Source: a virus (lineage: Duplodnaviria > Caudoviricetes). From it: a stretch of 64,000 bases of DNA. The notes under the pieces are model-generated. The model saw only the letters and a program-made list of their open reading frames with translations, searched no databases and was not told where the DNA came from. Positions 1 through 64,000 of this stretch are shown here, piece after piece. A program made the translations under genes and the position numbers. The stretch lies in the IMG/VR virus record IMGVR_UViG_3300025133_000020. The stretch is one strand, 5' to 3'. Position 1 is the stretch's first letter; each line of letters opens with the position of its first letter.

Positions 1-1014
1 GTCGCTGACCAAAAGGAAATTCCGTTTAGAGTGGTAACACAAAGATACGGTAAAGGTCTTGTTGACTATGATGACATCTGTGATACTGCTGGTGTAGTGT
101 ATTTAGGTCTTGACCTATCTCACCCAGTAGCGGGTAACGGAACATCAACATTTGATGGTTACGTTGGAGCATCTGGTTCAACAAGTGGTGTAACTGGTGG
201 TTTCACTGCTGATACATCTTCATTCCTAGTATCATGGGCACAATACGCAAGTCTTGAGTTCGAAACTGAAATGGGAGAAGTAACCTTCACACTTGATGAG
301 GTTGTAGTTTCTGTTGAAGAAAGAAAACTAAGAGCTACTTGGTCTCCTGAACTGGCACAAGATGTTAGTGCATTCCACAACATCGATGCTGAAGCGGAAT
401 TGACTGCGTTACTTTCTGAGCAAATTGCTTCTGAAATTGACCGTGAAATTCTAAGAGACCTTAGAAAAGTAGGTGCATGGCAATCACGTTGGGATTACAT
501 GGGATGGAGAAAAGCAAGTCAAGCATCTAATGCTTACACACAAAAAGACTGGAACCAAACGTTAATTACTAAGGTTAACCAAATCTCTGCTCAAATCCAC
601 AAGTCAACTCTAAGAGGTGGAGCAAACTTCATCGTAGTATCTTCCGAGATATCTGCAATCTTTGATGACTTGGAGTACTTCCACGTATCTGACGCAAGTC
701 CAGAGCAAGACCAATATAACATGGGTATCGAGAGAATCGGTAGCTTAGGAGGAAGGTACCAAGTGTACAGAGACCCTTACGCACCGTCTTGGTCAATGAT
801 TATCGGTCACAAAGGTAAGTCTTTGTTAGACACAGGTTACATCTACGCACCATACGTGCCGATGCAATTGACGCCTACAATGTACAACCCGTTCAACTTC
901 GCGCCAGTGAAGGGTATCATGACACGTTACGCTAAGAAGTCTGTTAATAACAGGTTCTACGGACACGTTCGTGTAGACGGAGTGGTAACATTCAACACTA
1001 ACGAATTGAGATAA
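1..1014 (+). CDS. gp23: Major capsid protein (T4 gp23-like), 5' truncated by window edge
   Basis: Open frame from base 1; gp23-type motifs DAEAELTALLSEQIASEIDREI, GYIYAPYVPMQ, KGIMTRYA. Confidence 0.95.
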   Translation, partial: VADQKEIPFRVVTQRYGKGLVDYDDICDTAGVVYLGLDLSHPVAGNGTSTFDGYVGASGSTSGVTGGFTADTSSFLVSWAQYASLEFETEMGEVTFTLDEVVVSVEERKLRATWSPELAQDVSAFHNIDAEAELTALLSEQIASEIDREILRDLRKVGAWQSRWDYMGWRKASQASNAYTQKDWNQTLITKVNQISAQIHKSTLRGGANFIVVSSEISAIFDDLEYFHVSDASPEQDQYNMGIERIGSLGGRYQVYRDPYAPSWSMIIGHKGKSLLDTGYIYAPYVPMQLTPTMYNPFNFAPVKGIMTRYAKKSVNNRFYGHVRVDGVVTFNTNELR

Positions 1015-1028
1015 TCATTCGTTTATAT

Positions 1029-1063
1029 AAAAAAAAAGCCTTCTTTATGAAGGCTTTTTTTTT
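1029..1063. terminator. Bidirectional intrinsic terminator
   Basis: A9-GCCTTC-tttat-GAAGGC-T9 between convergent capsid gene and minus-strand cluster. Confidence 0.9.
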
Positions 1064-1077
1064 GTCTTATACTTTTT

Positions 1078-1467
1078 CTATTGTCTGTCTAGATAAGCTT
1101 TAGCCATTTGTTTGGCTTCTGCTTCGTGTTTGGAATCGTTTCGTATAAACGCACCATACTCCATGGCAGATATAAAGGATTCTTCTAGGTCACTAAGTGG
1201 TACTTCTTCACCGATGAATTTCTCTATGTTGGCAGCTACATATTCCTCAACATCATCTTCGTATCCAGAACCTTCCCACCTTTCACAAAAGTATGCTTCT
1301 ACTTTACCATCATAATGTATGGTTACATTATTATCTCGATGAAGCCCACCTTCATCCAAATCGATGTCAAAAAACACATCTAAAAAGGTATCCTCTTCTC
1401 TAAATGTAATATTTTCAGCTATCTGATGCATTACATCGTAAATTAACGTCTTAAATTCTTCTTTCAT
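1078..1467 (-). CDS. Acidic hypothetical protein
   Basis: 129-aa ORF, tightly packed in minus-strand cluster. Confidence 0.7.
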   Translation of the reverse strand: MKEEFKTLIYDVMHQIAENITFREEDTFLDVFFDIDLDEGGLHRDNNVTIHYDGKVEAYFCERWEGSGYEDDVEEYVAANIEKFIGEEVPLSDLEESFISAMEYGAFIRNDSKHEAEAKQMAKAYLDRQ

Positions 1468-1472
1468 TTTTC

Positions 1473-5614: not shown

Positions 5615-5868
5615 TACTCTTTAGCTAGTTTTTTAGCTTCAGTTTCACCCCCAATATGTCTGAAAATAATTGCGTCATAAGTGTCATTATGCTTGTCCAT
5701 TAACATAAAACGGATTCTGTGAGCGTTATATAATGCCTGCAATTCTTTGGTACCCAATTGGGTAACCATGGATGCCATTTTCTTCCCCTGAATCACGTCA
5801 TATAACGCCTGATTATTGCTCTGCGTTTCTAATTCGTAACGCAGGCTATTTGCTATCCTATCGCTCAT
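5611..5868 (-). CDS. Hypothetical protein
   Basis: 85-aa ORF overlapping stop of upstream structural gene. Confidence 0.65.
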   Translation of the reverse strand: MSDRIANSLRYELETQSNNQALYDVIQGKKMASMVTQLGTKELQALYNAHRIRFMLMDKHNDTYDAIIFRHIGGETEAKKLAKEY

Positions 5869-7283
5869 TGGCTATCTCTCAACTCACTTTGGGATAGAAC
5901 GCTGAAGTATAATACTTCCTTTAATGTGTTCACTTCCAAGTTGGTTGTAGCCTTAATATCGATGAAATATTCAGATGGAATAAGGCTAGCAGTATCTATC
6001 AAGAAGTAGTTATGGTTATTAGCCATTTCCACTGGTTGATAGTCTATTATTGTTAATTCATTTATACCTTCCTTCGCGTATAGGCGATATTGAACATCAT
6101 CCATTTTTTGCTCTTGGTTTACGGTATATGGTATCTTGGTTTGTACGATTACTTTTCGAATATCACCCCTCTTAATAACCTCACCTTTTTGGATTCCACC
6201 AGCTACAATTCCTACCTTCTTAGGTAGCCCAGCGCTGTCACCTACGTTGTACCAATCATCAGCCGATTTAAGGGCGAAATCAAGCGTTATATTAGGTCTG
6301 GAGACACCATTGATGGTTACACCTGACCAAACGTCATTAAACATCACACAATCAACCGCAGTGCTTGTTGTAGGTACATTAATATCGATGCTATAAACAC
6401 CCTTAGTTACCTGAGTTACAGCGCTTTGCGTGTAAGCTGAGTAAACAGCACCGTCTTGGTCTAAGACTTGAACCGTTGGTAAAGAGTCGAGATTAGTGGG
6501 CGTACCGCCCAAGTTAACGTATAGGTATAGCTTGTTAGCTTTGTCAAGGTAGAAATCATGTCTATCATCAGTGATATGGTCGGAATAAATAGTTTCAACA
6601 TATGGTTCATATATGCTCTGAGTGTGTCGTGTGAAGAACCCTACGTATTGATATTCGTAGGTTGGTAATTCTTCGTATTCTCTTTGAAACGCTAAAGCTA
6701 AACCATTATTGGTTGCACCAGTTATTAAATCATTAACGAATGATGTGATATCCATATCAATATTCTCATTCCCCAATGGGAAATTCTGAGTTTGGATGGT
6801 TATACCACTTGTGGCTCCTGTTACCACACCTTCTTCAGCCCACCCACTTAATGTGGTGGCTGAGTACCAGTTTGATGGTACCGCATTATAAGCTGGTTGC
6901 CCAGCAGTATAAGTACAGTCTGAATAATCATACCCGACACCCTCAACCCAATCTTGAGTTATAGGGAATAGGATAAGGTCGAATGAGGATGCTCTGGGTT
7001 TACCAGCACAATTCTTTTGACCTAATAATTCCTTATCCAAACAACCAGTATTAATCATACGTAACGTATGCGTCATCTTAGTTAAATCTGGGTAAGTACC
7101 ACCAGTGTATAGGGTCTGTAATCTTGAAACATCAAAATGGAATAAGTGTCTGGTATACTGTTGGTCATATGTACTTCCAGTACCGCCACCATAGTACAAT
7201 TCACTCACAGGATTTAGCCCAGTATTAGTGTAGCTATCCAGTATGATTGTGTTGTTTCTATCGAAGTAAGTTCTAACTACCAT
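5865..7283 (-). CDS. Putative virion structural protein (beta-rich, DNRLRE-like)
   Basis: Beta-rich, S/T/G-rich, late-type promoter upstream. Confidence 0.65.
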   Translation of the reverse strand: MVVRTYFDRNNTIILDSYTNTGLNPVSELYYGGGTGSTYDQQYTRHLFHFDVSRLQTLYTGGTYPDLTKMTHTLRMINTGCLDKELLGQKNCAGKPRASSFDLILFPITQDWVEGVGYDYSDCTYTAGQPAYNAVPSNWYSATTLSGWAEEGVVTGATSGITIQTQNFPLGNENIDMDITSFVNDLITGATNNGLALAFQREYEELPTYEYQYVGFFTRHTQSIYEPYVETIYSDHITDDRHDFYLDKANKLYLYVNLGGTPTNLDSLPTVQVLDQDGAVYSAYTQSAVTQVTKGVYSIDINVPTTSTAVDCVMFNDVWSGVTINGVSRPNITLDFALKSADDWYNVGDSAGLPKKVGIVAGGIQKGEVIKRGDIRKVIVQTKIPYTVNQEQKMDDVQYRLYAKEGINELTIIDYQPVEMANNHNYFLIDTASLIPSEYFIDIKATTNLEVNTLKEVLYFSVLSQSELRDSQ

Positions 7284-10812: not shown

Positions 10813-11556
10813 TTAGTATATCCCTTCGTCTAAGCCCTTTATTTTCAGTATATCGTATAACCCCTTGAAGCGTTTCATCGCCAGTCTAATATCTTTAGTT
10901 GTTAGACCAGTATGGTTTCTCATGGTCTCAAGGATTGCTATTTTATTGTATTTACTACCCGTACTCACATGGGAGAGAACTTCTTCCCAGTTATCCAAGA
11001 TATCAATCAATGCGTGACCGACCAGACGTTCATTCTCATTTAGTTTCTTCTTCCCAGTATTCTCACCCTCTTCCAATTCAACTTTAATCTCCTGTATCAG
11101 TTTCACCATGAATTTATCCACGGTGAAATCGTCATGGTTCTTAATCTCGTACTGGTAATCATCTTGGGTCTCCAGATATGAACTCACATCATCAAACGAT
11201 GCGTATTTCTTCATATTCTTATCTTCATTCTGGACTTGCCCCAGAACATACCGTTTTATAATCGTACCATAATAAGAATAAGCTTTTTTGTTTCTACCAC
11301 CGTCAAATTTATCTGCCTTCATCATTACGTCTCCCAGCGCATCCATGTGCTGTTGTTCGAATGTTAGACCTTTCCGATAGAGCTTGTACGTTTTAATGAT
11401 GTATTCCACCATTTTGTTCAGAGGCTCTCTGAGATGTGCGTTGTAAATACGAGTCCGTTCCATTTGGTCATCGCATGCAACATATAGTTTAACAGCTTCT
11501 TCTTGTTCAGGTCCGAAATAAGGGTCTTTTTTCCTTTTCCGTCCTCTCTTAGCCAT
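10813..11556 (-). CDS. gp55: Phage sigma factor, T4 gp55-like (late transcription)
   Basis: KFDGGRNKKAYSYYGTIIKRYVLGQVQNEDK resembles the sigma region-2 segment of gp55-type proteins. Confidence 0.7.
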   Translation of the reverse strand: MAKRGRKRKKDPYFGPEQEEAVKLYVACDDQMERTRIYNAHLREPLNKMVEYIIKTYKLYRKGLTFEQQHMDALGDVMMKADKFDGGRNKKAYSYYGTIIKRYVLGQVQNEDKNMKKYASFDDVSSYLETQDDYQYEIKNHDDFTVDKFMVKLIQEIKVELEEGENTGKKKLNENERLVGHALIDILDNWEEVLSHVSTGSKYNKIAILETMRNHTGLTTKDIRLAMKRFKGLYDILKIKGLDEGIY

Positions 11557-12380
11557 TAGTCAGTTGTTTTCTCGTATGTTATCTTTCTATCTTCACTCCA
11601 GAAATATTCTTTCTTAGCTTTCTGCATCCACCAACGCGATTCAACATCATCCATCTCTTTCCTATAGGTATGGAATAACGAACCTTCTCTTAGGTTAACA
11701 TGTTTGTATCCGATTCTTGGTATAACCATCGTCTTAATACCACTGTGAGTCATCCTTAATAGGAACTCATAAATGAAGGTCAATTTGATTGAAGGTTTGA
11801 AGCCACCAAAATCATCGACCACCTCTTTCTTCATCACAATACCATCAGTATTAAAGTTCTGATACCTTAGTAAAGCGTCCGTGTCTAAGATACCCATCTC
11901 ATCAGAGAATTGGTTAGCCCACACAGCTTCGTTGGTACCACCGATATAGTTCATCTTAGTCTTGTCCTTCACATCTATGGCAACATCTGCAATCATAGGC
12001 ATAAAGATACCCACCTCTGGATAAGCCTCAATATACGTTATCGCATTCTTGAACCAGATATTGGCGTATTCATCATCGTATTCCAAGATTGAGAACCATT
12101 CCGTTTCAACCGCTTCAATTCCGAAGTTAACTTGAGTACAGAAATCAGTTTCACCATCATTCTCTAATACCGTAACTGGAAAATCCTTTGTGAATTTCTT
12201 CTTCTTAAGTTCTTTAGCTACATCACTACCCTTTGGTGTTACAATTAGTACCGCATCAGGTTGAGTTTGTTGTCTCACAATACTCTCAAACGCTACATCG
12301 AACATTTCCCTTGTCTCATCAGTCAATTCATGTACTGGTAAGACAACTGTAATATTACTCTTTGTTTTCTCTTTACTCAT
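11556..12380 (-). CDS. Glycosyltransferase family 2
   Basis: ITVVLPVH start; LEYDDEY DxD-like motif. Confidence 0.85.
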   Translation of the reverse strand: MSKEKTKSNITVVLPVHELTDETREMFDVAFESIVRQQTQPDAVLIVTPKGSDVAKELKKKKFTKDFPVTVLENDGETDFCTQVNFGIEAVETEWFSILEYDDEYANIWFKNAITYIEAYPEVGIFMPMIADVAIDVKDKTKMNYIGGTNEAVWANQFSDEMGILDTDALLRYQNFNTDGIVMKKEVVDDFGGFKPSIKLTFIYEFLLRMTHSGIKTMVIPRIGYKHVNLREGSLFHTYRKEMDDVESRWWMQKAKKEYFWSEDRKITYEKTTD

Positions 12381-12391
12381 TTTATTCGTTT

Positions 12392-13549
12392 TTAGTCATT
12401 AGCGGCTTGAGTAGCAGCTTTCTTATTATTTTCTTGTAGAGTAGAAATCTCCCCAATTCTATTCTCCACTAACTTACCATAAACCTCTTCAATCTTAAGT
12501 CTCTGAGCTTCAGGAGTATACACACCTTTACTGGTTTCCATATTTTCCAATATTTCAGAAGGTACGTTATCTTCTAACCACAACTTCAAATACGTTGCAA
12601 TCATCTCTGGCATCGCATGTTGCGTGTTAGTCCAAACACCGTTGTTCTTAATGGTTGGGTTGTTATCAGCATCTCTAGTTTCCATCCACTCTGGGATGAA
12701 TTCTGGCATCTTACCGATTACTGGTGTATCAGATTCGAACGCTTCCAATGGGAAGGTACCGAACCCAGCAGTATCATCAATCCATACCGCTAAACAAGAT
12801 GTACCTAACTCTTCAGCAAACGCTTTACGAGATAAACCTCTCATTTCTCGGAAGGTCACCCACTTATAAATTGGGTATTGCAGATAGAAAGCTTTGGCAA
12901 TCTTAGCCGCTTGTCCGTTATCCCTACATAAGATACTAACCATAGGCTTCTTAGGCTTATCGCTAGGCTTGAAGTATTCTGGAATACTCACAGGTACTAC
13001 CATCGTATTAAGTGATGGGAATAATGATTTAAGGTATTCACCTTGTCTAGCACTTGTAGTGATAGCATCGTTGAATCCAAACTCACTGTTCCACCTTTTA
13101 CCTAATGGTAACAATTCCAATAGGTATGATGGGCTTTGACTGAATACCACCTTCTTACATGGGAATGCTTTTACTTGTTCCATGATGTTGGCAAAAATCT
13201 CTGGGATAAGGATAAAGTCACTTGGCTTAATCTGTAGTTTTTGATTCTGGATTGAGATGTGGCTTAGTTCGCCATACTCTTCACCTAACCAATCAACCAG
13301 ACCCATAGACCCGTCTTCCCCACGTCTTAGTTTATAATCATCATGCTCGTGGATGATGTGAGCTTTATAGCCCAGTTCATTCAACACTTTAACGTGTTCG
13401 TAAATGTTAGCCACACCAGCAGTTGGGTTACCTTTGGTGTCTAGCGTAAAGAAGTAAAAATTACTTTCTTTGTTCTTAAGGTCCTTTAGAATGTCATCTA
13501 ATGATTGCCCTTGTGCGAATTCTTCTTTTGGTTGTTCTTGATTTTCCAT
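12392..13549 (-). CDS. GT-B (GT4-like) glycosyltransferase
   Basis: GFGTFPLEAFESDTPVIG matches the GT4 C-terminal motif region. Confidence 0.75.
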   Translation of the reverse strand: MENQEQPKEEFAQGQSLDDILKDLKNKESNFYFFTLDTKGNPTAGVANIYEHVKVLNELGYKAHIIHEHDDYKLRRGEDGSMGLVDWLGEEYGELSHISIQNQKLQIKPSDFILIPEIFANIMEQVKAFPCKKVVFSQSPSYLLELLPLGKRWNSEFGFNDAITTSARQGEYLKSLFPSLNTMVVPVSIPEYFKPSDKPKKPMVSILCRDNGQAAKIAKAFYLQYPIYKWVTFREMRGLSRKAFAEELGTSCLAVWIDDTAGFGTFPLEAFESDTPVIGKMPEFIPEWMETRDADNNPTIKNNGVWTNTQHAMPEMIATYLKLWLEDNVPSEILENMETSKGVYTPEAQRLKIEEVYGKLVENRIGEISTLQENNKKAATQAAND

Positions 13550-14498: not shown

Positions 14499-15395
14499 TT
14501 ACCAAGTAAATTTTTCTGAAAAAAAGTTTCTCACCCCTGAAAATAACCCTTCTTGCTTTATAATTCTAGGTTCAGGTGGTGTAGGTGGAGACCCTTCTGG
14601 AATAACCCTAATTTGAGGTCTAACAGGGGTTTTAACCTCTTTAGGTTTAATATCGGATAGGTCTGGAATCTCTTGCTTAGGGTAGTTATTCAATAACTTA
14701 CCGATAAGTGGGTTTCTTACGATGTCTGAATGTTTGAATTCGTAGAACCCAACTTCATCTAATTTACGGTGTCTGGCGAATAGGTCATATAACCCACTTT
14801 GTCTAACATCATTGTATCTATCTGATTGGTCTAAGTCACCAGAGATAATCATCTTACTGTTATACCCAATCCTACTTAAGATAGTTTTACATTGGCTTGG
14901 TGAAAGGTTTTGAGCCTCTTCGATAATGATAATTGAATTGTCCAAAGTCTTACCCCTGATGAAACCTAACGCTTGTATCCATAGGTAATCATTCTCTTCC
15001 AACTTCTTACGGTTAGCTTTACCCATAATCTTATCCACAATATCCAGAGATGAAGCCAAATATGGTTCCAATTTCTCTCGTATCGTTCCAGGAGTAAACC
15101 CAAGTTTCTCTTCTGCATCCACGGCTGGTTTTGATATGATTATTTTTTTATAGGAGTTACTACTATTCTGTAATAATTCAATAGCTCTGGCGATAGATAC
15201 GTATGACTTTCCAGTTCCAGCAGGTCCTGCCGCTACTATGATTTCCTTATCGGTTATTAATCTTGAGAATTCCTTCTGCGCTAGATTTTTACATTTTAGT
15301 CTGAATCTCGAAGGTAATAGTTTGTTTACTATTGACCCAAATTCGCTTTCCTTATACTCCACATTCCTTGCACTCTTTCCGTTTGTCTTAGCCAT
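14499..15395 (-). CDS. phoH: PhoH-family ATPase
   Basis: Walker A GPAGTGKS, FIRGKTL, EEAQN, SGDLDQSD. Confidence 0.93.
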   Translation of the reverse strand: MAKTNGKSARNVEYKESEFGSIVNKLLPSRFRLKCKNLAQKEFSRLITDKEIIVAAGPAGTGKSYVSIARAIELLQNSSNSYKKIIISKPAVDAEEKLGFTPGTIREKLEPYLASSLDIVDKIMGKANRKKLEENDYLWIQALGFIRGKTLDNSIIIIEEAQNLSPSQCKTILSRIGYNSKMIISGDLDQSDRYNDVRQSGLYDLFARHRKLDEVGFYEFKHSDIVRNPLIGKLLNNYPKQEIPDLSDIKPKEVKTPVRPQIRVIPEGSPPTPPEPRIIKQEGLFSGVRNFFSEKFTW

Positions 15396-15432: not shown

Positions 15433-16365
15433 TTAAAGTCTGACGTTAGGGTACTTTTCATTAAACCAGTCAATGGTCTCCTTCAACCCATCATATAATG
15501 GTGTGAATTCGAAGTCAGGTACTAAACTCATTAATTTACTATTATCCGTAGGTTTTCTAAACTGCCCATCAGGATTCTCTTCCAACCATTTAACCTCACC
15601 CTCAAATTCCATTAACTCTACAATCATCATAACCACATCCTTTATCGACACCTCTTCCGATGTTGATAGGATTATTGGTTCCTCACCTTCATAATTATCC
15701 AATATCCACTCCGTTAGTTTAGCCACATCCTTGTTGTATATGAACTCTCTCAATGGTTTACCTGAACCCCACACCTCAAATGGTGTACCATCACGTTTAG
15801 CTAAGTAACATTTATGTATCAAAGCTGGAACCACATGAGAACTCTCTAAGTTGAAGTTATCATTGATTCCGTATACGTTGGTAGGTATAACACATTTATA
15901 GTTCAACCCGTATTGCTCCCTGTACGCACGTACCTGTACCTCTGCCATTCTCTTAGCGTATGCGTATGCATCGTTGGAGTAATGTGGAGGACCTAAATGA
16001 ATCTTATCCTCAGTAAGTGGGTATTCCACGTCATCTGGGAATATACACGTTGATAGGAATACCACCATGTTCTTAATCCCATGTATCCTTGCCGCTTCTA
16101 TGGTGTTGGTGTTAATCATGATATTATCATAGAAGAATTCACCCTTATGGGTCATATTGTAACCCACACCACCAACCTTGGCAGCACAATGTACTATTCT
16201 ATCTATTGGTTCTTCATCCACCATATTTAAAGCGTAGTTATACACTACAACATCAGCGAATTCCCACCTTCTTAAGTCACATTTGGATGTCACCTTTACA
16301 ATATCGTCACCTTTAAATTGTGACCCAATTAGTCCGTTAGAACCTGTTACTAATAATCTACCCAT
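15433..16365 (-). CDS. fcl: GDP-L-fucose synthase
   Basis: TGSNGLIG, HCAAKVGG, FLSTCIFP, YAYAKR, PTNVYG, SHVVPALIHK, WGSGKPLREF. Confidence 0.95.
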   Translation of the reverse strand: MGRLLVTGSNGLIGSQFKGDDIVKVTSKCDLRRWEFADVVVYNYALNMVDEEPIDRIVHCAAKVGGVGYNMTHKGEFFYDNIMINTNTIEAARIHGIKNMVVFLSTCIFPDDVEYPLTEDKIHLGPPHYSNDAYAYAKRMAEVQVRAYREQYGLNYKCVIPTNVYGINDNFNLESSHVVPALIHKCYLAKRDGTPFEVWGSGKPLREFIYNKDVAKLTEWILDNYEGEEPIILSTSEEVSIKDVVMMIVELMEFEGEVKWLEENPDGQFRKPTDNSKLMSLVPDFEFTPLYDGLKETIDWFNEKYPNVRL

Positions 16366-17905: not shown

Positions 17906-18517
17906 TTAATCTAGCTTTATTTTTTCAAACACTTGAACATTTCTTTTATGGTTCACGTTAATTTCATTTGACGCCTTTCGTATCTTTTCCGTCATTTCTG
18001 GGTTAAATTTAAACCCACGTTTTGGGAATTCACTTCTCCAATCTTCTTGGTTCCTACATGCTATATGCCCATGACCGAATTGACCCATTCTAGCCGCAGA
18101 GAATACGATGAACTTATTCGACTTTTCACATAGGAAGTCGAATATATCATCATGATACTTTCTATCAATGTGTTCCATCACTTCCATACTGAATACCAAA
18201 TCGTATTCCCTGTTATTAATCTTCTCTGGGATATCGTCTTTAGTTATATCGAATTCGAATTGTATACAATCACGTTCTTCACTAAACATCCGACTATCCA
18301 TCTTCTCTGGCTCAATGGCATGTACCGTAGCAGCACCCTTTGATGAGAAGTAGTTAGAGTAGAACCCAAGACCACAACCAAACTCAAGTACGCTGGTAGG
18401 TTTTAGGTTATTCATTATCCACCCACAAATACCATTATTAAATGTATGTGCCCCGTTCATTCTTAAATGTGCATCTTTTGACCAATGCCCACCATCACTT
18501 CCTTTATTCGAATCCAT
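17906..18517 (-). CDS. Class I SAM-dependent methyltransferase
   Basis: VLEFGCGLG, YDLVFSMEVMEHI. Confidence 0.88.
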   Translation of the reverse strand: MDSNKGSDGGHWSKDAHLRMNGAHTFNNGICGWIMNNLKPTSVLEFGCGLGFYSNYFSSKGAATVHAIEPEKMDSRMFSEERDCIQFEFDITKDDIPEKINNREYDLVFSMEVMEHIDRKYHDDIFDFLCEKSNKFIVFSAARMGQFGHGHIACRNQEDWRSEFPKRGFKFNPEMTEKIRKASNEINVNHKRNVQVFEKIKLD

Positions 18518-18522
18518 TTTGT

Positions 18523-21410: not shown

Positions 21411-21411
21411 T

Positions 21412-43669: not shown

Positions 43670-43672
43670 GAC

Positions 43673-43704: not shown

Positions 43705-43717
43705 AAAACGATGAATC

Positions 43718-45416: not shown

Positions 45417-45434
45417 ATTTTATCCTTAGTCGGT

Positions 45435-45443
45435 ATATTTATA
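45435..45443 (+). promoter_or_regulatory. Putative late promoter ATATTTATA
   Basis: Upstream of fibre 3. Confidence 0.6.
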
Positions 45444-45470
45444 GTTAGAGATAAAATACTATAAATAATC

Positions 45471-47345: not shown

Positions 47346-47362
47346 TAAATAAGAAAAAAAAA

Positions 47363-48994
47363 ATGGCAGGTACTAAAAAAATATACACAGACTTATACGT
47401 AAAGGGCACACTTAACAACAACGGATTCTCATTCCCAGAAAGTGATGGGACGAATGGTCAAGCATTACTAACAACTGGTACAGGAAGTACTGTTTGGGGT
47501 AATATCTCAGGCGCAACGTCAGGTTGCTGCTTAGACGTATTCGTTACAGGTGGTACTTATACAGGTACAACAATCGTATTAACTAATACCACAGGTGGTA
47601 CAGTTAGTATAACTGGAATCACAGGTGGTGGAACAGGTAGTACATTTCCTGGTGGAAATAATACCCATGTTCAATGGAATAATGGTGGTTTATTTGATGG
47701 TACCAGTGGATTAACTTGGGATGGAAGTGAGCAATTCAACGTAGTTTCAGATTACAGTGGTTCAACCCAAAAATTAAGTATTGGTAAGGCTAATTTAGCT
47801 GGATTAGCTGATTACGATGGTGTGGGAATGTCCTATAAGAATCCTTTATCTGCTGGAACAAGTGGTTTATGGAGTGGTAATTTATCTGCCGTTAGTGGTC
47901 AAGATAACCATTCAGTTTTAGGTTATGCAGATTTGATGAGTAATACTCAGAACCTTTTGAGTATTAGCGCTTCTGAGGTAGGAATACAATCTACAACCCC
48001 TAGTGAAAGTTCTTCATTCTCTATGCTGGCTGGTGATGACACTCAAATACAATTAGAAAGTACGGGAACAACAGCTTTTATAGTAAGAGATGGGATTGGA
48101 AACCGTATGTTACAAGTTAATACTGCTGGTGACATCATATTTAACGATAATTATACATTCCCACAAGGTGATGGTTCAAATGGTCAAGTATTATCCACAG
48201 ACGGTGGTGGAAACGTATCATGGGAAAATGCCGCTTCAGGTGGGACGGGTGGTACCTCAATTATGATTGTAGGTGTTGGTTCCAACTCAACAATTAGAGA
48301 TAATGTAGGTAATACTGCTTCAGGTTATTATTCAGCCGCTTTAGGTGGTGGTGGTAATGTCGCTTCAGGTAATTATTCATTCGTTGGTGGTGGGCATGAT
48401 AATACAGCTTCAAATTATTGTGCAACAGTGGGTGGTGGTAAATGTAATATTGCTTCAGGTAATACTTCAACCGTATCTGGTGGGTATCAGAATACTGCTG
48501 GTAATAGTAACTCAGCAGTCGGTGGTGGTATTGATAACACCGCATCAGGTTATTACGCGGTTATTGGAGGTGGAGCATATAATACCGCTAGTGGTGCTGC
48601 ATCAACCGTAGCTGGTGGTAGTAATAACGCCTCTTCGGGTCAAGGGTCATTCATAGGTGGTGGATGGGAGAATACAGCTTCTGGTGCTTATTCAGTAATT
48701 GGTGGTGGTTTGGGTAATACCGCTTCGGGTTGTTACACATCCGTATTGGGTGGGCAGGGTAACACGGCTTCAGGTAACTATTCATCCGTATTGGGTGGGC
48801 AAGGATTATCTGCTGGAACAAATACATCGGCAGTACCTAACTTAGATATTAACGGTGATATTAGATTAATCGGAACATCAACAGCAACAGAAGCCTTTAA
48901 TGGTTCTGCTGGTGCAGTACCTTCAAGTGCGGCAACTTATGTAACAATAACATTGGATGGGTCAGATTATCTACTCCCATTATTTAGTATTTAA
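47363..48994 (+). CDS. Modular fibre protein 4
   Basis: Patchwork of segments near-identical to fibres 1 and 2. Confidence 0.8.
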   Translation: MAGTKKIYTDLYVKGTLNNNGFSFPESDGTNGQALLTTGTGSTVWGNISGATSGCCLDVFVTGGTYTGTTIVLTNTTGGTVSITGITGGGTGSTFPGGNNTHVQWNNGGLFDGTSGLTWDGSEQFNVVSDYSGSTQKLSIGKANLAGLADYDGVGMSYKNPLSAGTSGLWSGNLSAVSGQDNHSVLGYADLMSNTQNLLSISASEVGIQSTTPSESSSFSMLAGDDTQIQLESTGTTAFIVRDGIGNRMLQVNTAGDIIFNDNYTFPQGDGSNGQVLSTDGGGNVSWENAASGGTGGTSIMIVGVGSNSTIRDNVGNTASGYYSAALGGGGNVASGNYSFVGGGHDNTASNYCATVGGGKCNIASGNTSTVSGGYQNTAGNSNSAVGGGIDNTASGYYAVIGGGAYNTASGAASTVAGGSNNASSGQGSFIGGGWENTASGAYSVIGGGLGNTASGCYTSVLGGQGNTASGNYSSVLGGQGLSAGTNTSAVPNLDINGDIRLIGTSTATEAFNGSAGAVPSSAATYVTITLDGSDYLLPLFSI

Positions 48995-49078: not shown

Positions 49079-49453
49079 ATGGCAGATAGCGGAGCAACAA
49101 GCGGAGACACAGTAACAAGTGGAGACACAGTAACAAGTGGGGATACAGTACTGGTTACTGGGGTAACCTTAGATGAGCAAAGTAGAATCGATTTATCGGG
49201 TACAACTAGAATCATAATAAGAGAACCAAAAACGAGAGTTGTGGATAAAATCACTATAAATAGTATAGTAGATTCACCACTAAAACAGCGACTATTCGTT
49301 ATTATAGCAGAGGTCGGTCAGCTTACAATAGCTGAAGGTGTAGACTATATTGCTTTAGGTGATTGGTCAAGGTCTTATGTATATGATTACGTGTATAATT
49401 ACTACAAGACTTTTAAAGGTGATAGCCTTGTAGACGAAGGACTCCCAAAGTAA
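49079..49453 (+). CDS. Small protein with TSGDTV tandem repeats
   Basis: Start refined to ATG 49079 downstream of CTATTTATA at 49012. Confidence 0.7.
   Translation: MADSGATSGDTVTSGDTVTSGDTVLVTGVTLDEQSRIDLSGTTRIIIREPKTRVVDKITINSIVDSPLKQRLFVIIAEVGQLTIAEGVDYIALGDWSRSYVYDYVYNYYKTFKGDSLVDEGLPK
49097..49150 (+). repeat. Three tandem 18-nt repeats
   Basis: acaag(c/t)gg(a/g)ga(c/t)acagta x3. Confidence 0.95.
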
Positions 49454-57999: not shown

Positions 58000-58524
58000 A
58001 TGGCTAAACCTAACAAGATTGTACCTATAAATAGAATCAGTAAGTTTTTCTCTCAGGAAGATTTCGACTTGGAAATTGAGATGGGTAGAGAGGCTATCGA
58101 AGGTGATGGTAATTTCACGGTTATCTTATATCGGGTAGACCGAGAAATGACTAATACCGATATTTACAACGAAGCCCGAAAGGGTGATGTGGTGTATAAG
58201 GTACCTGTGGAGTTAAGTGTTATGCCTATAATTGATGAAGCTGAAAACTTAGCATTCAATACAACTGCTGGGTCATTACGGGATTTACAAGATGGTAATC
58301 TTAAGTTCCTTATATACCAAGCGCACTTGGATGAGCTTAATGTTGAGCTTACATTTGGTGATTACATAGGTTACCCAGTTACCGAAACTGAGGTTAGATT
58401 CTTTAGTATCGTAAATGATGGTGTTAAGAATTACGATAATGAACATACTATTATGGGATACAAAGGAGTGTATAAAGTGGTTAATTGTGCTCCAGTAGAC
58501 GAAAATGAATTTACTTCTGAATAA
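58000..58524 (+). CDS. Head closure/neck protein (gp14-like)
   Basis: Size, position before tail terminator and sheath, GDYIGY beta-barrel pattern. Confidence 0.55.
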   Translation: MAKPNKIVPINRISKFFSQEDFDLEIEMGREAIEGDGNFTVILYRVDREMTNTDIYNEARKGDVVYKVPVELSVMPIIDEAENLAFNTTAGSLRDLQDGNLKFLIYQAHLDELNVELTFGDYIGYPVTETEVRFFSIVNDGVKNYDNEHTIMGYKGVYKVVNCAPVDENEFTSE

Positions 58525-59960
58525 TGCCAAAAGGATTTAGAAAACAGTTAAAATTAACCTCTCAAAAGGTTGGGGTAGAACGTAGACAGGAACTGCTCGA
58601 TGGTATCGCTGATGGTAATGGTTTCCTACCTCAAGGTGTTCATATCCGAGATATGGATGCATCCTTCATTGATTTTGTTAATGAGAACCTTAAGATAGAG
58701 ATTGATGGTGAGCAAGTGCCTGTTATCTTCTTAACCATTCAAAGATACTCTGATTTCACCAAGACGTGGAAATTCACTGATGAGTACAAGAATATCAAGA
58801 TGCCTTTCATAACGATTGTTAGAAACCCTGACATTCAGAAAGGAACAAATCAAGCTGGATTAGCCAATATACCAGGACATCAACATTGGTCTTACTACAA
58901 AGTTCCATCTAATGATGGTGCCAGAGTTGGAGTGGATATCTATAAGATTCCACAACCTACTGCGGTGGATATCACCTATGAGGTTAGATTCTTCAGTAAT
59001 AAGATGTCTGACGTGAATGTCATTCACAATAAGGTTCAACGAGAATTCAACGCTATACAATCTTACATTTACCCAAAGGGGCATCCTATGCCTATTACGA
59101 TACCCACTATCAGTGATGAAAGTAATATTGAGGATTTTGAAAACAGACGTTTCTACGTTCAAACCTTCGAGATGCTATTGGCTGGTTATATCTTAGATGA
59201 GAATGATTTCGAGGTTCAACCAACGATTAATAGGGCGATGGTATTAAATGAGATTGCGATTGACCCTGAAACAGCCGAACCGTATCCAAACCAAAACAAG
59301 AGAACGCCTGTAATCAGAACCCAAGGTAATGTTATCATTCGTAACAGTGCTGGTCAGTTAATCAATTCAAGTGCGTGTGATACTTCATATGTGGTTGGAA
59401 ATTCAGAGATAATTAATTCTGGTGCGACATGGAGCGTAAGTGTTCCAGCAACCAGTGGTTATACATTAGAGAATGTGATTAACTATGATAGTGATGGTTC
59501 ACCAGTAGTAACACCTGCAATGGTAGGTTTTACCGCAACAACGTGTGACCCCGCTACCATTATTAATTCTGGTGCAACATATTCAGCTACAACGCCTGCT
59601 GGAAGCATATTCAATGTACCTAACACACCAATATTCAGTACGTCTTCAGGGTTTACTGATTCAACACCATCAGTTGCTACAGGTTATACGATAGGTGATG
59701 TGGCTTGGACAGATAGTGATGGGGTACCTAAGACAACCGAATACGGTCAACCTATCGCATGTATATTAGCATTAAAGGATGAGGTGGAACACGATTTTGT
59801 ACCACCAATGGATTATTTGGGTAGGGCACCTAATGGTACGTTGACCAGTGCTAGTGCTTGGACGATAACTAGGATTGAGGTATTCACTGGTGGTACCACT
59901 GATGTTAAATCAGCCACTAATGTAGCATGGGACGATAGGTATATCGTTATTTACTCATAA
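58524..59960 (+). CDS. Tail terminator/completion protein (gp15-like) with C-terminal extension
   Basis: KMPFITIVR, PTAVDITYEVRFF, YxQTFE; upstream of sheath. Confidence 0.6.
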   Translation: MPKGFRKQLKLTSQKVGVERRQELLDGIADGNGFLPQGVHIRDMDASFIDFVNENLKIEIDGEQVPVIFLTIQRYSDFTKTWKFTDEYKNIKMPFITIVRNPDIQKGTNQAGLANIPGHQHWSYYKVPSNDGARVGVDIYKIPQPTAVDITYEVRFFSNKMSDVNVIHNKVQREFNAIQSYIYPKGHPMPITIPTISDESNIEDFENRRFYVQTFEMLLAGYILDENDFEVQPTINRAMVLNEIAIDPETAEPYPNQNKRTPVIRTQGNVIIRNSAGQLINSSACDTSYVVGNSEIINSGATWSVSVPATSGYTLENVINYDSDGSPVVTPAMVGFTATTCDPATIINSGATYSATTPAGSIFNVPNTPIFSTSSGFTDSTPSVATGYTIGDVAWTDSDGVPKTTEYGQPIACILALKDEVEHDFVPPMDYLGRAPNGTLTSASAWTITRIEVFTGGTTDVKSATNVAWDDRYIVIYS

Positions 59961-61304: not shown

Positions 61305-61768
61305 TGAATGAAGATACCCCTAAGAATATATTCTTCGGTTTTTTCATTCGAATAGTCGGGGGCTTATTTTTCACCTTATTGTGGATGGTGTTTCAATTCG
61401 TTAGTACCTTATACGTACTAATCACCAATTGGAAGGGCGCTAATTTGGAGATAGGTATGATGCAGTATAGAATGGCGCTATGTGATGACCAAAAAGCCAA
61501 TGTGGTACTAGGTCCTTTACTTAATGCGGCATTCGTTAAAAAAGCGGTGCCAAGCGAAATCAATGAGGTGAGAGTACTATATGGACATCAAGATGATACC
61601 ATTAGTGATATTACTGGTAGGTTGATGATAGTTGGAGGGCTTAACCGTTCTGGAGAAAGATTTAGAAAGGTGTTGAATAAGGTACTGGGCAAAGAACATT
61701 GCATCAAGAGCGTATCCCAAAGAAATGTGGATATTCTTAAAATGGGGGATACTTCTACAGTCTTTTGA
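61304..61768 (+). CDS. Membrane-anchored phage protein
   Basis: N-terminal TM; DQKANV...DTISDITG...HCIKSV. Confidence 0.65.
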   Translation: MNEDTPKNIFFGFFIRIVGGLFFTLLWMVFQFVSTLYVLITNWKGANLEIGMMQYRMALCDDQKANVVLGPLLNAAFVKKAVPSEINEVRVLYGHQDDTISDITGRLMIVGGLNRSGERFRKVLNKVLGKEHCIKSVSQRNVDILKMGDTSTVF

Positions 61769-61778
61769 CTTTTCCTTC

Positions 61779-61787
61779 ATATTTATT
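61779..61787 (+). promoter_or_regulatory. Putative late promoter ATATTTATT
   Basis: Upstream of sheath gene. Confidence 0.6.
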
Positions 61788-61838
61788 AAGTAGATAATCA
61801 AGATATTATAATAAAGACACACAAAAAAATAAAGTTAA

Positions 61839-64000
61839 ATGGCTGAAAATAGAGTATTCGTTAGTCCAGGTGTATATACCTCAGAAAGAGATTTAAGTTT
61901 CGTTACCCGTCAAGTCGGTGTAACAACATTGGGATTGGTAGGTGAAACCGTAAAAGGACCTGCATTTCAACCCGTATTCATATCAAATTATGACGAGTTT
62001 ACAACCTTCTTCGGAGGTCAAAATGCTACAAAATTCAAAGATGGTGGGTACCCTAAATATGAGTTGCCATACATCGCAAAATCATATTTGACACAATCAA
62101 ATCAATTATTCGTAACAAGGGTCTTAGGATTCTCAGGTTATGATGCTGGTGAAGCATGGGGTATTACCCTTGATGCCGCATTAGACCCAAGTACAGTTGC
62201 TACCGTTTCAGGTGCGACTTATTCTGGATTCTCAGGTGATTCATTAGTTACTTATACCACAACAACTGGTGGTACATTCACAACTACCGCTAACGTAGGT
62301 GAGCCAGCGATTCAACAATTAATCGATGATGGTTTACTTACAACTGAATTAGCATTCTTAGAGACTGCGGCTGTAAGTGCTACAACTACTGTGGCTTGTA
62401 CATACTATAAGGTTGGAAGTACCTTTATTGGTAGCTCCTTCAACTTGTACGTAACTGATATTGTAACAGGTCTTAGTGGTTCAACCACAGGTTACACTTC
62501 TGGTGTAACTACAAGTTGTTCAGGTACATCTTATTCAGATGTTGAAAACCAAATTGTAGCGTTATTACGTTCAAGAGGTGAGTATGACGGTGATGAATAC
62601 TTGATTCCTGAAGTAACAGGTTCAACAACAACAGATACGACATATGTTGAATTTGGTGCTACACCAACTGATGCTGAAACAGACCCAATGGGTAACTTCT
62701 CATTAAGTGGTCTTGCAACCACATTGGGTGCGTTCGATTACAACCTATCATTTGATGTTACAAAGAGAAATTACTTAGGTAAAGTTCTTGGTAGAGGTGA
62801 GAAAGATGGTAAGACAGCAATCTTTGTCGAGGAACTATATCAAAATATGATGGATAAGGCAGTCGAGGATGAAAAAGTAAGAGGTGTGAACCTTTCACTT
62901 ATTGACTATGCTAGTCCACTTGGGCTTAAGCCATTTGATGATTACAAAGAAGAATACGCACCTGCGGTATCTCCGTATGTCGTATCCGAACTTCGTGGTA
63001 CCAACTTACTTAGATTGTTCAGATTCTGGACAATTGCTGATGGTAATGCGGCTAACCACCAAATTAAGATTTCAATCATAAACATAAAACCAGACGATAA
63101 AACTTTCGATTTAGAAATTAGAAGTTTCTTCGATACTGACTCTAATAAAGTGGTTCTTGAAAAATTCGCAAGATTGACGATGGACCCAACATCAAACAAC
63201 TACATTGCCAAGAAGATTGGTACGTTGGATGGTGATTACGCTTCAAACTCTTCTTACGTATTAGTTGAATTGGATGATACATCCGATACTAGTGATGCGT
63301 TCCCAGCAGGTATGCTTGGAGTTCCGTTAAGGGATTACCATGAGGCTATTGCGGCTAACACTGGTGTGACTTACCCAACAATCTGTTACAACCAAACATA
63401 CGGGGCTTTCGAAAATAAGAGAAAAGTTTATTTAGGTCTTTCTGATACTGTAGGTATTGACCAAGACTTCTTAGATTACAAAGGTGTACCTAACGATACA
63501 GACCTTTCAATGTGGACTGGTCTTACTAAAGGTTTCCACATGGATGTTGACGCCACTGGCGCAACTATCGATGGTGTGGAAGTTGTTTACAACTCATCAG
63601 GTGATACATACTCACCAGTATTCTTGTTTGATACAGGATGCTGCGAGTTCAGAACTGATGCTGGAATAGCAGACACAGCTTACGACAAGATTTATGCTCG
63701 TAAATTCACATTTGCACCTTACGGTGGTTTCGATGGTTGGGATATCTACAGAGATAGAAGAACTAACAGAGACAACTATAGAATAGGTCAAAGTAAGAGT
63801 GATGCCGCATTACTTTCTACTGCAATTGCAAATAGAGCATTAACAAACGGTGATAATGGTACGAGTGCCGATTACTACGCTTACTTAGAAGCTATCTGGA
63901 CATTCAATAACCCTGAATCAGTAAACATTAACTTGTTTGCAACTCCTGGTATTGACGGTTTAGAAAACACTAATTTGGTGGAAGAAACAATCGAAATGAT
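61839..64000 (+). CDS. gp18: Tail sheath protein (gp18-like), 3' truncated; absent from ORF track
   Basis: Hand translation MAENRVFVSPGVYTSERDLSF...LVGETVKGPAFQPVFI...FVTRVLG...LFATPGID. Confidence 0.92.
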   Translation, partial: MAENRVFVSPGVYTSERDLSFVTRQVGVTTLGLVGETVKGPAFQPVFISNYDEFTTFFGGQNATKFKDGGYPKYELPYIAKSYLTQSNQLFVTRVLGFSGYDAGEAWGITLDAALDPSTVATVSGATYSGFSGDSLVTYTTTTGGTFTTTANVGEPAIQQLIDDGLLTTELAFLETAAVSATTTVACTYYKVGSTFIGSSFNLYVTDIVTGLSGSTTGYTSGVTTSCSGTSYSDVENQIVALLRSRGEYDGDEYLIPEVTGSTTTDTTYVEFGATPTDAETDPMGNFSLSGLATTLGAFDYNLSFDVTKRNYLGKVLGRGEKDGKTAIFVEELYQNMMDKAVEDEKVRGVNLSLIDYASPLGLKPFDDYKEEYAPAVSPYVVSELRGTNLLRLFRFWTIADGNAANHQIKISIINIKPDDKTFDLEIRSFFDTDSNKVVLEKFARLTMDPTSNNYIAKKIGTLDGDYASNSSYVLVELDDTSDTSDAFPAGMLGVPLRDYHEAIAANTGVTYPTICYNQTYGAFENKRKVYLGLSDTVGIDQDFLDYKGVPNDTDLSMWTGLTKGFHMDVDATGATIDGVEVVYNSSGDTYSPVFLFDTGCCEFRTDAGIADTAYDKIYARKFTFAPYGGFDGWDIYRDRRTNRDNYRIGQSKSDAALLSTAIANRALTNGDNGTSADYYAYLEAIWTFNNPESVNINLFATPGIDGLENTNLVEETIEM

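Follow-up and report, generated by a model that had tools for sequence, protein, structure and literature searches.

The window, that is the whole stretch of 64,000 nucleotides analysed here, comes from an uncultured marine jumbo phage and encodes a series of motif-bearing virion proteins together with an island of glycan enzymes. The motif, originally predicted as [S/T]-G-x-[T/S], is real, while a gapped-tripeptide scan refined it to S-[G/A]-x-T or T-G-x-T; the prediction had missed the Ala variant, and the last position is mainly Thr and seldom Ser. The 5'-open, T4 gp23-type major capsid ORF (1–1014, plus strand; Pfam Gp23, E 7e-60) carries it in tandem (SGST and SGVT, read as SGSTSGVT) in a loop insertion at 172–195, which is missing or different in five relatives. 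A 472-aa protein without known family (5865–7283, minus strand), located beside the glycan island, has 9 motifs at 14 candidate dipeptides. On the plus strand follow a 346-aa virion protein (32933–33973, 18 motifs), a 558-aa virion structural protein (phrog_1645; 33995–35671, 8 motifs), a 555-aa Cys-rich ConA/LamG-like jelly-roll protein assigned by AF2 and Foldseek (35671–37338, 16 motifs) and four fibre genes (37418–40726, 40751–43669, 45471–47345 and 47363–48994) with 77 motifs in total, the fibre cluster being broken up at 43718–45416 by a gene of unassigned family and a sulfotransferase gene. Further along the plus strand, a 124-aa protein (49079–49453) displays six motifs, all within residues 1–56, and a tandem SGDTV(T/L) repeat accounts for three of these. 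A putatively gp15-like protein (58524–59960, plus strand) has all its 8 motifs in a C-terminal extension (residues 299–458); the homologues in G002, G003 and G004 are 342–353 aa long and only the N-terminal part aligns. Finally, the 3'-open tail sheath (61839–63998, plus strand; PHROG tail sheath) has 11 motifs, mostly within an insertion region (residues 124–263) delimited in an alignment of 32 relatives, the cluster lying at 62208–62628.

The glycan island on the minus strand comprises soluble enzymes, and no membrane segment was found in any of them. A GDP-mannose 4,6-dehydratase (16358–17332, Pfam E 1.6e-119) and a GDP-fucose synthase-like epimerase/reductase (15433–16365, Pfam E 6.5e-46) form a GDP-fucose supply pair present only in the window and in G002. 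Variable tailoring enzymes assigned by Pfam (17906–22769: a methyltransferase, a weak GT8-like protein, a sulfotransferase, GT10 and GT11 fucosyltransferases, an FkbM methyltransferase and a GT2) have no homologues in G001–G004, and fucose, sulfo and methyl enzymes are altogether restricted to the window or close relatives. A GT2_5 and GT4 fusion glycosyltransferase (23712–25373, Pfam) occurs in some motif-rich relatives and was seen in no motif-free one. A conserved trio (10813–13549) consists of a 247-aa protein without known family, a second GT2 (11556–12380, Pfam GT2) and a 385-aa glycosyltransferase (12392–13549) distantly similar to AmGGT/Agt (PDB 8xsg, E 2.5e-5). Neither the 12392–13549 enzyme nor the fusion enzyme has a homologue in any cultured phage. 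No kinase was detected and no GT41 was found within the window.

Motif enrichment and its specificity

The hand counts of motifs over SG/TG dipeptides were all reproduced: 13/17 in 32933–33973, 15/21 in 35671–37338, 6/9 in 5865–7283, 6/6 in 58524–59960 (all at residues 299–458, outside the 353-aa homologue of G002), 6/6 in 49040/49079–49453 and 2/13 in the DNA polymerase. In an unbiased scan of all gapped tripeptides, SG.T (33 observed versus 4.9 expected, z 12.8), SA.T (19 versus 2.7, z 10) and TG.T (26 versus 6.9, z 7.4) take the top three ranks, and a residue-by-residue scan found no excess for residues other than G or A after S or T. The excess in virion proteins holds against composition-shuffled sequences; when residues were shuffled inside 15-residue local windows, the 12 virion proteins, unrelated in sequence, had 155 motifs versus 34.6 expected (z 22, about 4–5 fold), and the remaining 55 ORFs 6 versus 8.3. 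With shuffles in 10- and 20-residue windows the excess was kept for 5865, 32933, 35671, 37418, 49040 and 61839 (p ≤ 0.0005), and for the 58524 protein at p about 0.002. The frequency of Thr at +3 after [ST]G is 0.56 in virion proteins other than the fibres, against a background of 0.11, and 0.07 in non-virion proteins. At motif positions Ser is encoded from either of its codon families, and every Thr and every Gly codon occurs; the signal therefore lies at the protein rather than the DNA level. Residue x is very variable, large hydrophobics included, flanks are frequently hydrophobic or aromatic, and overlapping or tandem motifs are common (15 cases of a spacing of 3 or 4 residues). The Bacteroidota-type sequon D-[ST]-[AILMTV], from which the motif had been said to differ, shows no enrichment in virion proteins (30 observed versus 31.7 expected), and neither does N-x-S/T.

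A compositional or counting artefact of the S/T/G-rich fibres, which are 18–20% Gly and strongly repetitive, is rejected and can be considered almost certainly wrong: the signal survives local shuffles, the position-specificity test and the comparison with control phages, and once all paralogous and repeat segments were removed 57/101 candidate dipeptides still carried the motif in virion proteins versus 6/120 elsewhere (odds ratio 24.6, p 2.5e-18). Among these controls, T4 (15/241 in structural genes, 10/109 in the fibre region) and the Microcystis phage Mel-JY01 (17/194) have the motif at background while sharing the capsid and sheath folds of this phage; thus the fold does not demand the motif. 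The 23 structural proteins of phi92 show a marginal excess only (26/204, z 2.2). The motif is specific to the lineage, and it is confined to outer virion proteins. Probable inner tail proteins of the syntenic relative G002, namely a 2083-aa lysozyme-domain protein (0/29) and a gp6-like wedge (0/6), are devoid of it, as is a 162-aa ORF adjoining the sheath gene (0/4) that we guess from its position to be the tube, so that a glycan coat over the whole particle, as first proposed, is too broad a claim.

A glycosyltransferase gene that co-varies with the motif

Motif density is unequal between relatives with and without the glycosyltransferase described below, the genome-wide fraction being 0.08 in motif-free and 0.17–0.20 in motif-rich genomes. 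Sheath orthologues have 8/27, 4/28, 6/18 and 5/18 in motif-rich genomes versus 2/22 and 2/20 in motif-free ones, and orthologues of the 5865–7283 protein 4/14, 7/15, 2/5 and 1/7 versus 0/0 and 2/5. We also observed that the LamG-like family (35671–37338) is bimodal, its members being either motif-rich or motif-free, which is new here. Conservation within this family extends to 15–20 sites: Ser and Thr replace each other at position 0, as do Gly and Ala at position 1, and the Thr at +3 is near-invariant; more distant relatives keep the density while motif positions turn over, and in motif-free relatives a conserved [TS]-G-N-T column becomes [NDS]-G-N-N. In the AF2 model the motifs are located in a hairpin turn, at strand starts, at a helix end and in pre-helix coil, with one clear two-residue hairpin (residues 399–402) and no regular periodicity or flat array. 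The positional conservation would also fit a structural role within the LamG-like family.

Of the window genes that have homologues in six relatives, a single one tracks the motif, being present in G002, G003, G010 and G011 and missing from G006 and G008. This gene (28125–29399, minus strand) adjoins a dUTPase/dCTP-deaminase-like gene and encodes a protein without transmembrane segment, for which the AF2 model (pLDDT 93) is a confident GT-B fold, GT4-like and near to retaining GT4 enzymes. Its top Foldseek matches are GlgM, PglA, MshA and BshA (probability 1.0, TM 0.55–0.66), while its Pfam GT4 match stays under threshold (21 versus 28.5 bits) and no sequence-level match to any solved glycosyltransferase was found. 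A homologue is present in 5/5 motif-rich complete genomes and in 0/5 motif-free records, two of which are complete (339 and 373 kb). At syntenic loci with a neighbouring gene, it is found in 21/21 motif-rich cases and in 33/33 of a second, overlapping set, but in 0/14 motif-free loci, where the neighbours 22702, dUTPase and 27483 are kept. G011 and G010 have 37 genes in common that the motif-free genomes lack, and this gene alone among them recurs in the window, in G002 and in G003. In a second motif-free lineage, the separately placed contig L286, the gene is missing from the syntenic position, which the 31038-like/161-aa genes and the 27483-like gene flank, and motif-free rows do not form one clade (p-AU 7.5e-6). 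The support for co-variation amounts to one well-documented lineage (clade D) and this one short contig, about two independent contrasts, and shared ancestry could therefore yield the pattern. The contig that encodes motif-free P0184 has in the syntenic place a 403-aa gene with a weak Glyco_trans_1_4 match, which may be a counterexample. Also speaking against the link, phi92-like coliphages carry distant homologues of the glycosyltransferase (24% identity), and phi92 has the motif in marginal excess only. Altogether, the 28125–29399 product is a candidate enzyme for reading the motif, judged by predicted structure and phyletic pattern.

The original prediction had assigned this role to the soluble glycosyltransferases of the window as a group. 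The soluble island stands, and one glycosyltransferase gene does co-vary with the motif, but the group is too broad since the trio at 10813–13549 is found in motif-rich and motif-free relatives alike; the trio was therefore ruled out as motif reader. As a whole, the earlier reading is partly supported.

Interpretation of the motif

The motif probably marks the sites at which a sugar coat made by the virus is attached, because it is enriched on outer proteins and tracks one phage sugar-transferase gene among relatives. With confidence just above even, we favour a reading in which S/T-G/A-x-T serves as a short recognition signal where outer virion proteins are exposed (in the sheath insertions, the capsid loop, the fibres and the LamG-like protein, and in the extension at the C-terminus of 58524–59960), and the phage's own soluble GT-B enzyme (28125–29399) would read this signal in the cytoplasm, putting the first sugar on a motif hydroxyl. 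As acceptor or key contact, the Thr at +3 would be the better candidate, since it hardly varies whereas position 0 swaps Ser and Thr freely. Other soluble island enzymes would then extend and decorate the glycan with a set that differs between relatives; in the window phage the decoration would involve GDP-fucose synthesis, two fucosyltransferases, GT2 enzymes, sulfotransferases and methyltransferases. Such a coat might serve shielding or adhesion.

Unlikely, yet deserving serious weight, is that another trans-acting factor (kinase, sulfotransferase, methyltransferase or assembly chaperone) reads the motif, with the 28125–29399 gene co-varying by ancestry and perhaps acting on DNA, which phage GT-B enzymes often glycosylate, or on another acceptor. 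The two or so contrasts, the dUTPase-like neighbour, the possible P0184 counterexample, the sulfotransferases and methyltransferases encoded both within the island and among the fibre genes, and 36 further genes with the G010 and G011-only pattern, which the fragments leave as candidates, are all in agreement with this. Nevertheless, no window gene other than 28125–29399 matches the pattern, two motif-free lineages that are placed separately lack it at the syntenic position with flanking genes kept, no kinase was detected in the window, and the sulfo- and methyltransferases are not conserved in motif-rich relatives.

The motif could also be an unmodified turn or strand-capping element of beta-rich virion proteins, spread by descent and domain shuffling, as the hydrophobic or aromatic flanks, the hairpin at residues 399–402, the strongly conserved LamG-like sites and a TGGT-rich module common to the fibres and the 32933 protein might suggest. 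We consider this improbable: T4 and Mel-JY01 have the same folds without the motif, motif-free orthologues have lost the S/T and the T although the fold, and even the Gly-Asn turn, is retained, secondary-structure contexts are varied, residue x tolerates large hydrophobics, and the enrichment persists in unique, unrelated sequences while non-virion proteins of the same genome stay at background. Even less credible is an unmodified Thr/Ser array binding host polysaccharide, ice or mineral, or mucus-like polymers; the restriction to outer proteins and the frequent tandem motifs would fit, but the model has no periodic or flat array, the motif is dispersed over unrelated folds including short loops, and the co-loss with the glycosyltransferase would be left unexplained.

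Comparison with known glycosylation systems

The retaining GT4-family enzymes MshA, BshA, PglA and GlgM share the GT-B fold with the soluble 28125–29399 product; the substrates of these characterised structural neighbours are small molecules or lipid-linked sugars and not protein, while GtfA is a GT4-family O-GlcNAc transferase of serine-rich repeat adhesins. The chlorovirus PBCV-1 glycosylates its capsid independently of host machinery, using virus-encoded cytoplasmic enzymes at atypical sequons (for a review, see PMC4691112). The window likewise has a virus-encoded GDP-fucose pathway (GMD and the following enzyme) and soluble glycosyltransferases, whereas PBCV-1 is a eukaryotic virus without tail or fibres and its glycans are N-linked to Asn at a different sequon. 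General O-glycosylation in Bacteroidota, the phylum assumed as host in the original prediction, relies on a three-residue sequon, D-[S/T]-[A/I/L/V/M/T], but with periplasmic en-bloc transfer, and this sequon is the one that showed no enrichment above. In Actinobacillus, NGT/HMW1C and the elongating glucosyltransferase Agt carry out sequon-directed cytoplasmic N-glycosylation at N-x-S/T (PMC12159676). The reading proposed here has in common with it the soluble enzymes, the short linear sequon and a glycan that grows step by step on the protein; that system, however, is N-linked and started by a GT41, a family not found in the window, the Agt-like window gene also occurs in motif-free relatives, and N-x-S/T is not enriched.

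Mycobacteriophage virions are O-glycosylated by phage-encoded glycosyltransferases (Freeman et al. 2023, Cell Host Microbe 31:1216, as cited in PMC12619734 and PMC10877033), and the passages of these two articles that deal with the subject place the glycans, seen by mass spectrometry, at the C-termini of capsid and tail-tube subunits and do not describe a four-residue sequon. Judged from these passages, the system differs from ours in that a defined motif, read here from sequence, lies on about a dozen outer proteins, in an unrelated host and phage lineage, and in that the 12392–13549 and 23712–25373 enzymes lack cultured-phage homologues while 28125–29399 has distant ones (24% identity) in phi92-like coliphages. 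On the same basis, both systems are proposed to employ soluble phage-encoded glycosyltransferases that modify the structural proteins of the phage itself within the cytoplasm, and the extension at the C-terminus of the 58524–59960 protein recalls the mycobacteriophage C-terminal sites.

The S/T-G/A-x-T motif of the virion proteins

The window forms a 64-kb part of a 212.8 kb contig from an uncultured jumbo myovirus. Its genes include those for a capsid protein of the T4 gp23 type (1-1014), the tail sheath (61839-63998), a family-B DNA polymerase and four fibres, and its minus strand has an island of glycan enzymes (~10.8-29.4 kb). A megablast search with the window gave no match, no near-identical or cultured relative was found, and the closest match of the sheath displays ~30% identity, with no cultured phage near. 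IMG/VR contains at least 599 relatives of the sheath and more than 1,860 of the LamG-like protein (35671-37338), some of them from Tara samples and some on contigs of up to 413 kb; aquatic metagenomes are very rich in this lineage.

The original prediction proposed that an [ST]-G-x-[ST] motif found throughout the virion is the sequon of a phage-encoded glycosylation system. Every hand count of the motif versus SG/TG dipeptides was reproduced exactly, and the excess persists when composition is controlled by local shuffles over 10 and 20 residues, six proteins reaching p <= 0.0005. The contrast between structural and non-structural proteins is pronounced, with 155 instances versus 34.6 expected in 12 virion proteins (z 22) and 6 versus 8.3 expected in 55 other ORFs. 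After [ST]-G, Thr occupies position +3 at a frequency of 0.56 in the non-fibre virion proteins, when compared to a background of 0.11, to 0.09-0.20 at other offsets and to 0.07 in non-virion proteins. When all gapped tripeptides were scanned without bias, SG.T (z 12.8), SA.T (z 10.0) and TG.T (z 7.4) came out on top, and tabulating all residues after S/T showed that just two carry the effect, G following either residue and A following S; thus, the motif is S-[G/A]-x-T / T-G-x-T. TA.T is also enriched in the wider LamG-like family (134/240).

Since the fibres and the 32933 protein have repeated modules in common, we masked every segment matching another protein or elsewhere in the same protein. 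After masking, the motif accounts for 57/101 candidate dipeptides in eight unrelated proteins versus 6/120 elsewhere (odds ratio 24.6, p 2.5e-18). A composition or repeat artefact is rejected because the signal withstands both local shuffles and repeat masking. An explanation at the DNA level fails as well: motif positions draw on Ser codons of either family and on every Thr, Gly and Ala codon, with a usage roughly equal to background, which places the signal at the protein level. Residue x is highly variable, V, D, A, Y, S, T and G being the commonest in unique sequence, while Pro is found at x in 0/57 unique instances versus 1.5 expected, a sample that gives no ground to claim Pro avoidance. 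In the virion proteins neither the Bacteroidota sequon D-[ST]-[AILVMT] (30 observed vs 31.7 expected) nor N-x-[ST] (z 1.1) is enriched. A sequon should exceed compositional expectation in its substrates and be missing from other proteins, and such is the distribution of the motif, which is very probably a real, selected signal read by something in trans.

Motif sites and the folds that carry them

Internal loops, insertions and fibres harbour the motif sites, and both motifs of the capsid fall in one such loop; this siting in insertions and loops hints, indirectly, that the acceptor residues may be solvent-exposed. In control phages the number of motif instances per candidate dipeptides is at background (T4 structural genes, 15/241; T4 fibre region, 10/109; Microcystis phage Mel-JY01, 17/194), and phi92 is close to it with a marginal excess (26/204, z 2.2). 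The capsid and sheath families of T4 and Mel-JY01 are the same as those of the window, and the motif is not a property of the folds. In the motif-rich relative G002, the motif fraction of fibres and outer proteins is 30-60%; its probable inner tail proteins are devoid of the motif (0/29 in a 2083-aa lysozyme-domain protein, 0/6 in a gp6-like wedge), as is a 162-aa ORF adjoining the sheath gene (0/4), which by position we guess to be the tube. AF2 models the LamG-like protein as a jelly roll resembling ConA/CBM40 (pLDDT 77), in which motifs occupy a hairpin turn of two residues (399-402), the starts of strands (64-67, 80-83 and 357-360), a helix end (113-116) and coil ahead of helices (103-106 and 202-205).

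Among relatives, the motif is retained at some positions and relocated at others. In the sheaths of 31 relatives it occurs at partly conserved columns within an indel-rich insertion region. In 120 LamG-like relatives (50-100% identity), the pooled motif fraction is 59% for SG.T, 59% for TG.T and 69% for SA.T, with Thr at 10.5%; their alignment displays 15-20 columns conserved at 70-100%, where S and T exchange freely at position 0, position 1 is G or A and Thr at +3 is almost invariant. At 30-40% identity most motif positions differ while density is maintained. The family is bimodal: among 150 representatives (50% clustering) 22 have no motif at all, and most others have a motif fraction of 40-90%. 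One conserved column reads [TS]-G-N-T in motif-rich members and [NDS]-G-N-N in motif-free ones, which keep the Gly-Asn turn and lose the hydroxyl residues.

Some further features of these proteins were recorded. The LamG-like protein has invariant cysteines (C159, C198, C239, C243 and C257), unusual if it folds in the cytoplasm, and some of them are residue x of a motif (SGCT, SACT). The C-terminal halves of the fibres (37418-48994, plus strand) are YadA/UspA1-like head repeats (NTASG[NY]YS; weak PF18792 match), and the N-termini of all four share a TGGT-rich module with the 32933 protein. Between fibre genes 2 and 3, the segment 43718-45416 (plus strand) encodes an uncharacterised 296-aa product and a sulfotransferase (44598-45416, Pfam E 1e-17), the latter being embedded apart from the main glycan island.

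Co-variation of the motif with the 28125-29399 gene

We examined 79 IMG/VR loci around LamG-like genes, with 10-kb flanks each. The 17 loci whose LamG-like gene is motif-free form one well-supported clade nested among motif-rich loci. A homologue of the predicted glycosyltransferase (GT) gene 28125-29399 (minus strand; hereafter 28125) was found in 0 of the 14 motif-free loci that retain the neighbours 22702, dUTPase and 27483, and in 21/21 motif-rich loci retaining 27483; in a second, partly overlapping set, it was present in 33/33 motif-rich versus 0/2 motif-free loci. The same holds for whole records, since a homologue exists nowhere in five motif-free records, two of them (339 and 373 kb) complete, terminally repeated genomes, while all five complete motif-rich genomes have one (39-48% identity), even when it does not adjoin the LamG-like gene. 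The genome-wide motif fraction is 0.08 in motif-free versus 0.17-0.20 in motif-rich genomes, SG.T or SA.T ranks among the top words of unbiased scans in motif-rich genomes only, and orthologous sheaths score 8/27, 4/28, 6/18 and 5/18 versus 2/22 and 2/20.

Comparing the window proteins with their homologues in six relatives, 28125 is the sole gene present in the four motif-rich genomes (G002, G003, G010 and G011) and absent from the two motif-free ones (G006 and G008). The remaining genes, among them 5865, 7317, 8925 and the trio formed by 10813, GT2 11556 and the Agt-like 12392, occur in both groups. Of the 37 genes that G011 has in common with G010 and with neither motif-free genome, the 28125 homologue is the only one to recur in the window, G002 and G003. 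The proposal that the GTs of the window read the motif leaves 28125, which follows it, as candidate reader, and does not hold for the trio, which is rejected as reader by its occurrence in motif-free genomes. GMD/fucose genes are discarded as a correlate, being absent from motif-rich G003, G010 and G011.

Because one clade amounts to one event, further motif-free lineages were sought. When 37 LamG-like proteins were placed on a tree, at least three changes were required for the motif-free rows, and placing these in one group is rejected (p-AU 7.5e-6, for a group drawn up with knowledge of a previous tree). The clade A contig L286 carries, in order, 31816-like, 31456-like, 31038-like, a 161-aa gene and 27483-like, with no GT at the position that it occupies in the window. 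The two contigs of clade B, L283 and L287, are motif-free, with low values in the adjoining S/T-rich structural proteins (11/77); they are too short to count for GT presence, and clade C gave no informative data. GT presence was not judged, the contigs being short or without DNA, for motif-rich P0166, P0185 and P0213 and motif-free P0209, P0196 and P0189. An IMG/VR search with the single motif-free protein P0255 gave no match, and one with P0175 matched only contigs on which GT status is not judgeable. On the P0184 contig (clade A), the gene listing has a 403-aa gene with a weak Glyco_trans_1_4 match at the syntenic place, possibly one counterexample to the link. Judged from these genomes, the motif appears to co-occur with the transferase in about two independent contrasts, with P0184 as one possible exception.

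Several observations concern the same relatives. SG.T dominates in G010 (41% GC) and SA.T in G011 (30% GC). C-P-x-C and C-P-x-H words stand 12-27 standard deviations above expectation in G006, G008, G010 and G011 (the genomes behind L134, L138, L149 and L151), motif-rich and motif-free alike, mostly over 13-20 proteins per genome. In G003 (the contig behind L028), huge structural proteins, e.g. at 77849-92251, have collagen-like G-x-K-G and T-P-T repeats that dominate the word statistics and may represent a different kind of modified appendage. The PhoH gene on the P0184 contig has an intein/homing-endonuclease insertion; in the window, a PhoH-like ATPase (14499-15395, minus strand) sits within the glycan island.

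The candidate enzyme and known glycosylation systems

The AF2 model of 28125 is a two-Rossmann-domain GT-B fold (pLDDT 93, pTM 0.91), and the top 50 Foldseek matches are all GT-B, the best being the retaining GT4-type enzymes GlgM, PglA, MshA and BshA. The modelled fold thus resembles CAZy GT4-like GT-B enzymes, while the family match in sequence is sub-threshold (Pfam Glyco_transf_4, 21.1 bits vs a cut-off of 28.5); no match was obtained in NCBIfam or in a profile search of PDB sequences. Invariant residues are present in alignment A3 of 28125, and neither this protein nor the other island GTs has a hydrophobic segment. Predicting a complex of 28125 with the motif-rich N-terminal 60 residues of the 49079 protein gave a score of 0.01, which carries no weight either way. 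In tblastn searches of 50,697 phage records, 28125 matched only phi92-like coliphages, Klebsiella phages and uncultured megaphages, whereas 12392 and the GT2_5+GT4 fusion 23712 gave no match. The phi92-like homologues are distant (24% identity) and show no convincing motif excess; as the excess of phi92 is only marginal, any link between motif and GT is confined to the closer 28125 family. The best record match is LR756501.1 (540613-541791), a 735-kb uncultured megaphage (32% identity, E 8e-52). A NUMOD3-motif endonuclease ORF (29377-30120, minus strand), absent from syntenic relatives, lies directly upstream of 28125 and overlaps its start.

Window GTs above the Pfam threshold are GT2 (two genes), GT10, GT11 and the GT2_5+GT4 fusion; a GT8-like match is weak and below threshold, and GT41 is absent among the Pfam matches. 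No flippase, polymerase or oligosaccharyltransferase was seen, which fits stepwise cytoplasmic glycosylation rather than en-bloc transfer. Two contigs syntenic with the window, G002 and G003, retain homologues of 10813, GT2 11556, 12392, 23712 and 28125; fucose genes are found in the window and G002 only, and fucosyltransferases, sulfotransferases and methyltransferases in the window only.

To our knowledge, a few mycobacteriophages are the only phages with demonstrated virion glycosylation, which is the nearest precedent. As cited in two later papers, the glycans are located at the C-termini of capsid and tail-tube subunits, and no sequon was found described there (PMC12619734, PMC10877033); the former, a moraphage paper, also mentions core GTs. 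Like these mycobacteriophages, the window phage encodes predicted glycosyltransferases; unlike the C-terminal capsid and tube sites, its motifs are in loops, insertions and fibres, the putative G002 tube having 0/4. A further difference is that, in the phage records searched, 12392 and 23712 have no homologues in cultured glycosylating phages and that 28125 has its matches elsewhere. NGT/Agt is a known sequon-directed cytoplasmic N-glycosylation system (PMC12159676), of which 12392 is a distant Agt/AmGGT relative; yet 12392 does not follow the motif, no GT41 initiating enzyme is among the Pfam matches of the window, and N-x-S/T is not enriched. General O-glycosylation of Bacteroidota differs in its sequon, which is not enriched in the window virion proteins. 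The literature searched contained no description of S/T-G/A-x-T as a glycosylation sequon, and we believe four points to be new here: the Ala form of the motif, controls matched by fold, the bimodality of the LamG-like proteins and a single GT identified as co-varying.

On balance, we lean slightly towards the GT4-like enzyme as the motif reader with O-glycosylation of outer virion proteins as the outcome. A fuller model, which we advance tentatively, is that soluble 28125 would recognise S/T-G/A-x-T on virion proteins in the cytoplasm and initiate O-glycans that a strain-variable enzyme set would complete, in the window phage as fucosylated, sulfated and methylated glycans, yielding a serotype-like sugar coat on abundant marine jumbo phages; the composition and role of the glycans are what we infer. 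If true, phage virion glycosylation would have its first defined sequon, which would also serve as a compact, portable tag for cytoplasmic O-glycosylation and glyco-engineering; the model would bear on the ways in which marine phages evade grazing, adsorption traps or recognition by the host, and would account for the great variability of phage glycan islands. With a four-residue tag on a dozen outer proteins and one soluble GT gene tracking it across relatives, the loose notion that jumbo phages may use their GT islands to coat themselves becomes a one-enzyme, one-peptide question for which no phage culture is needed.
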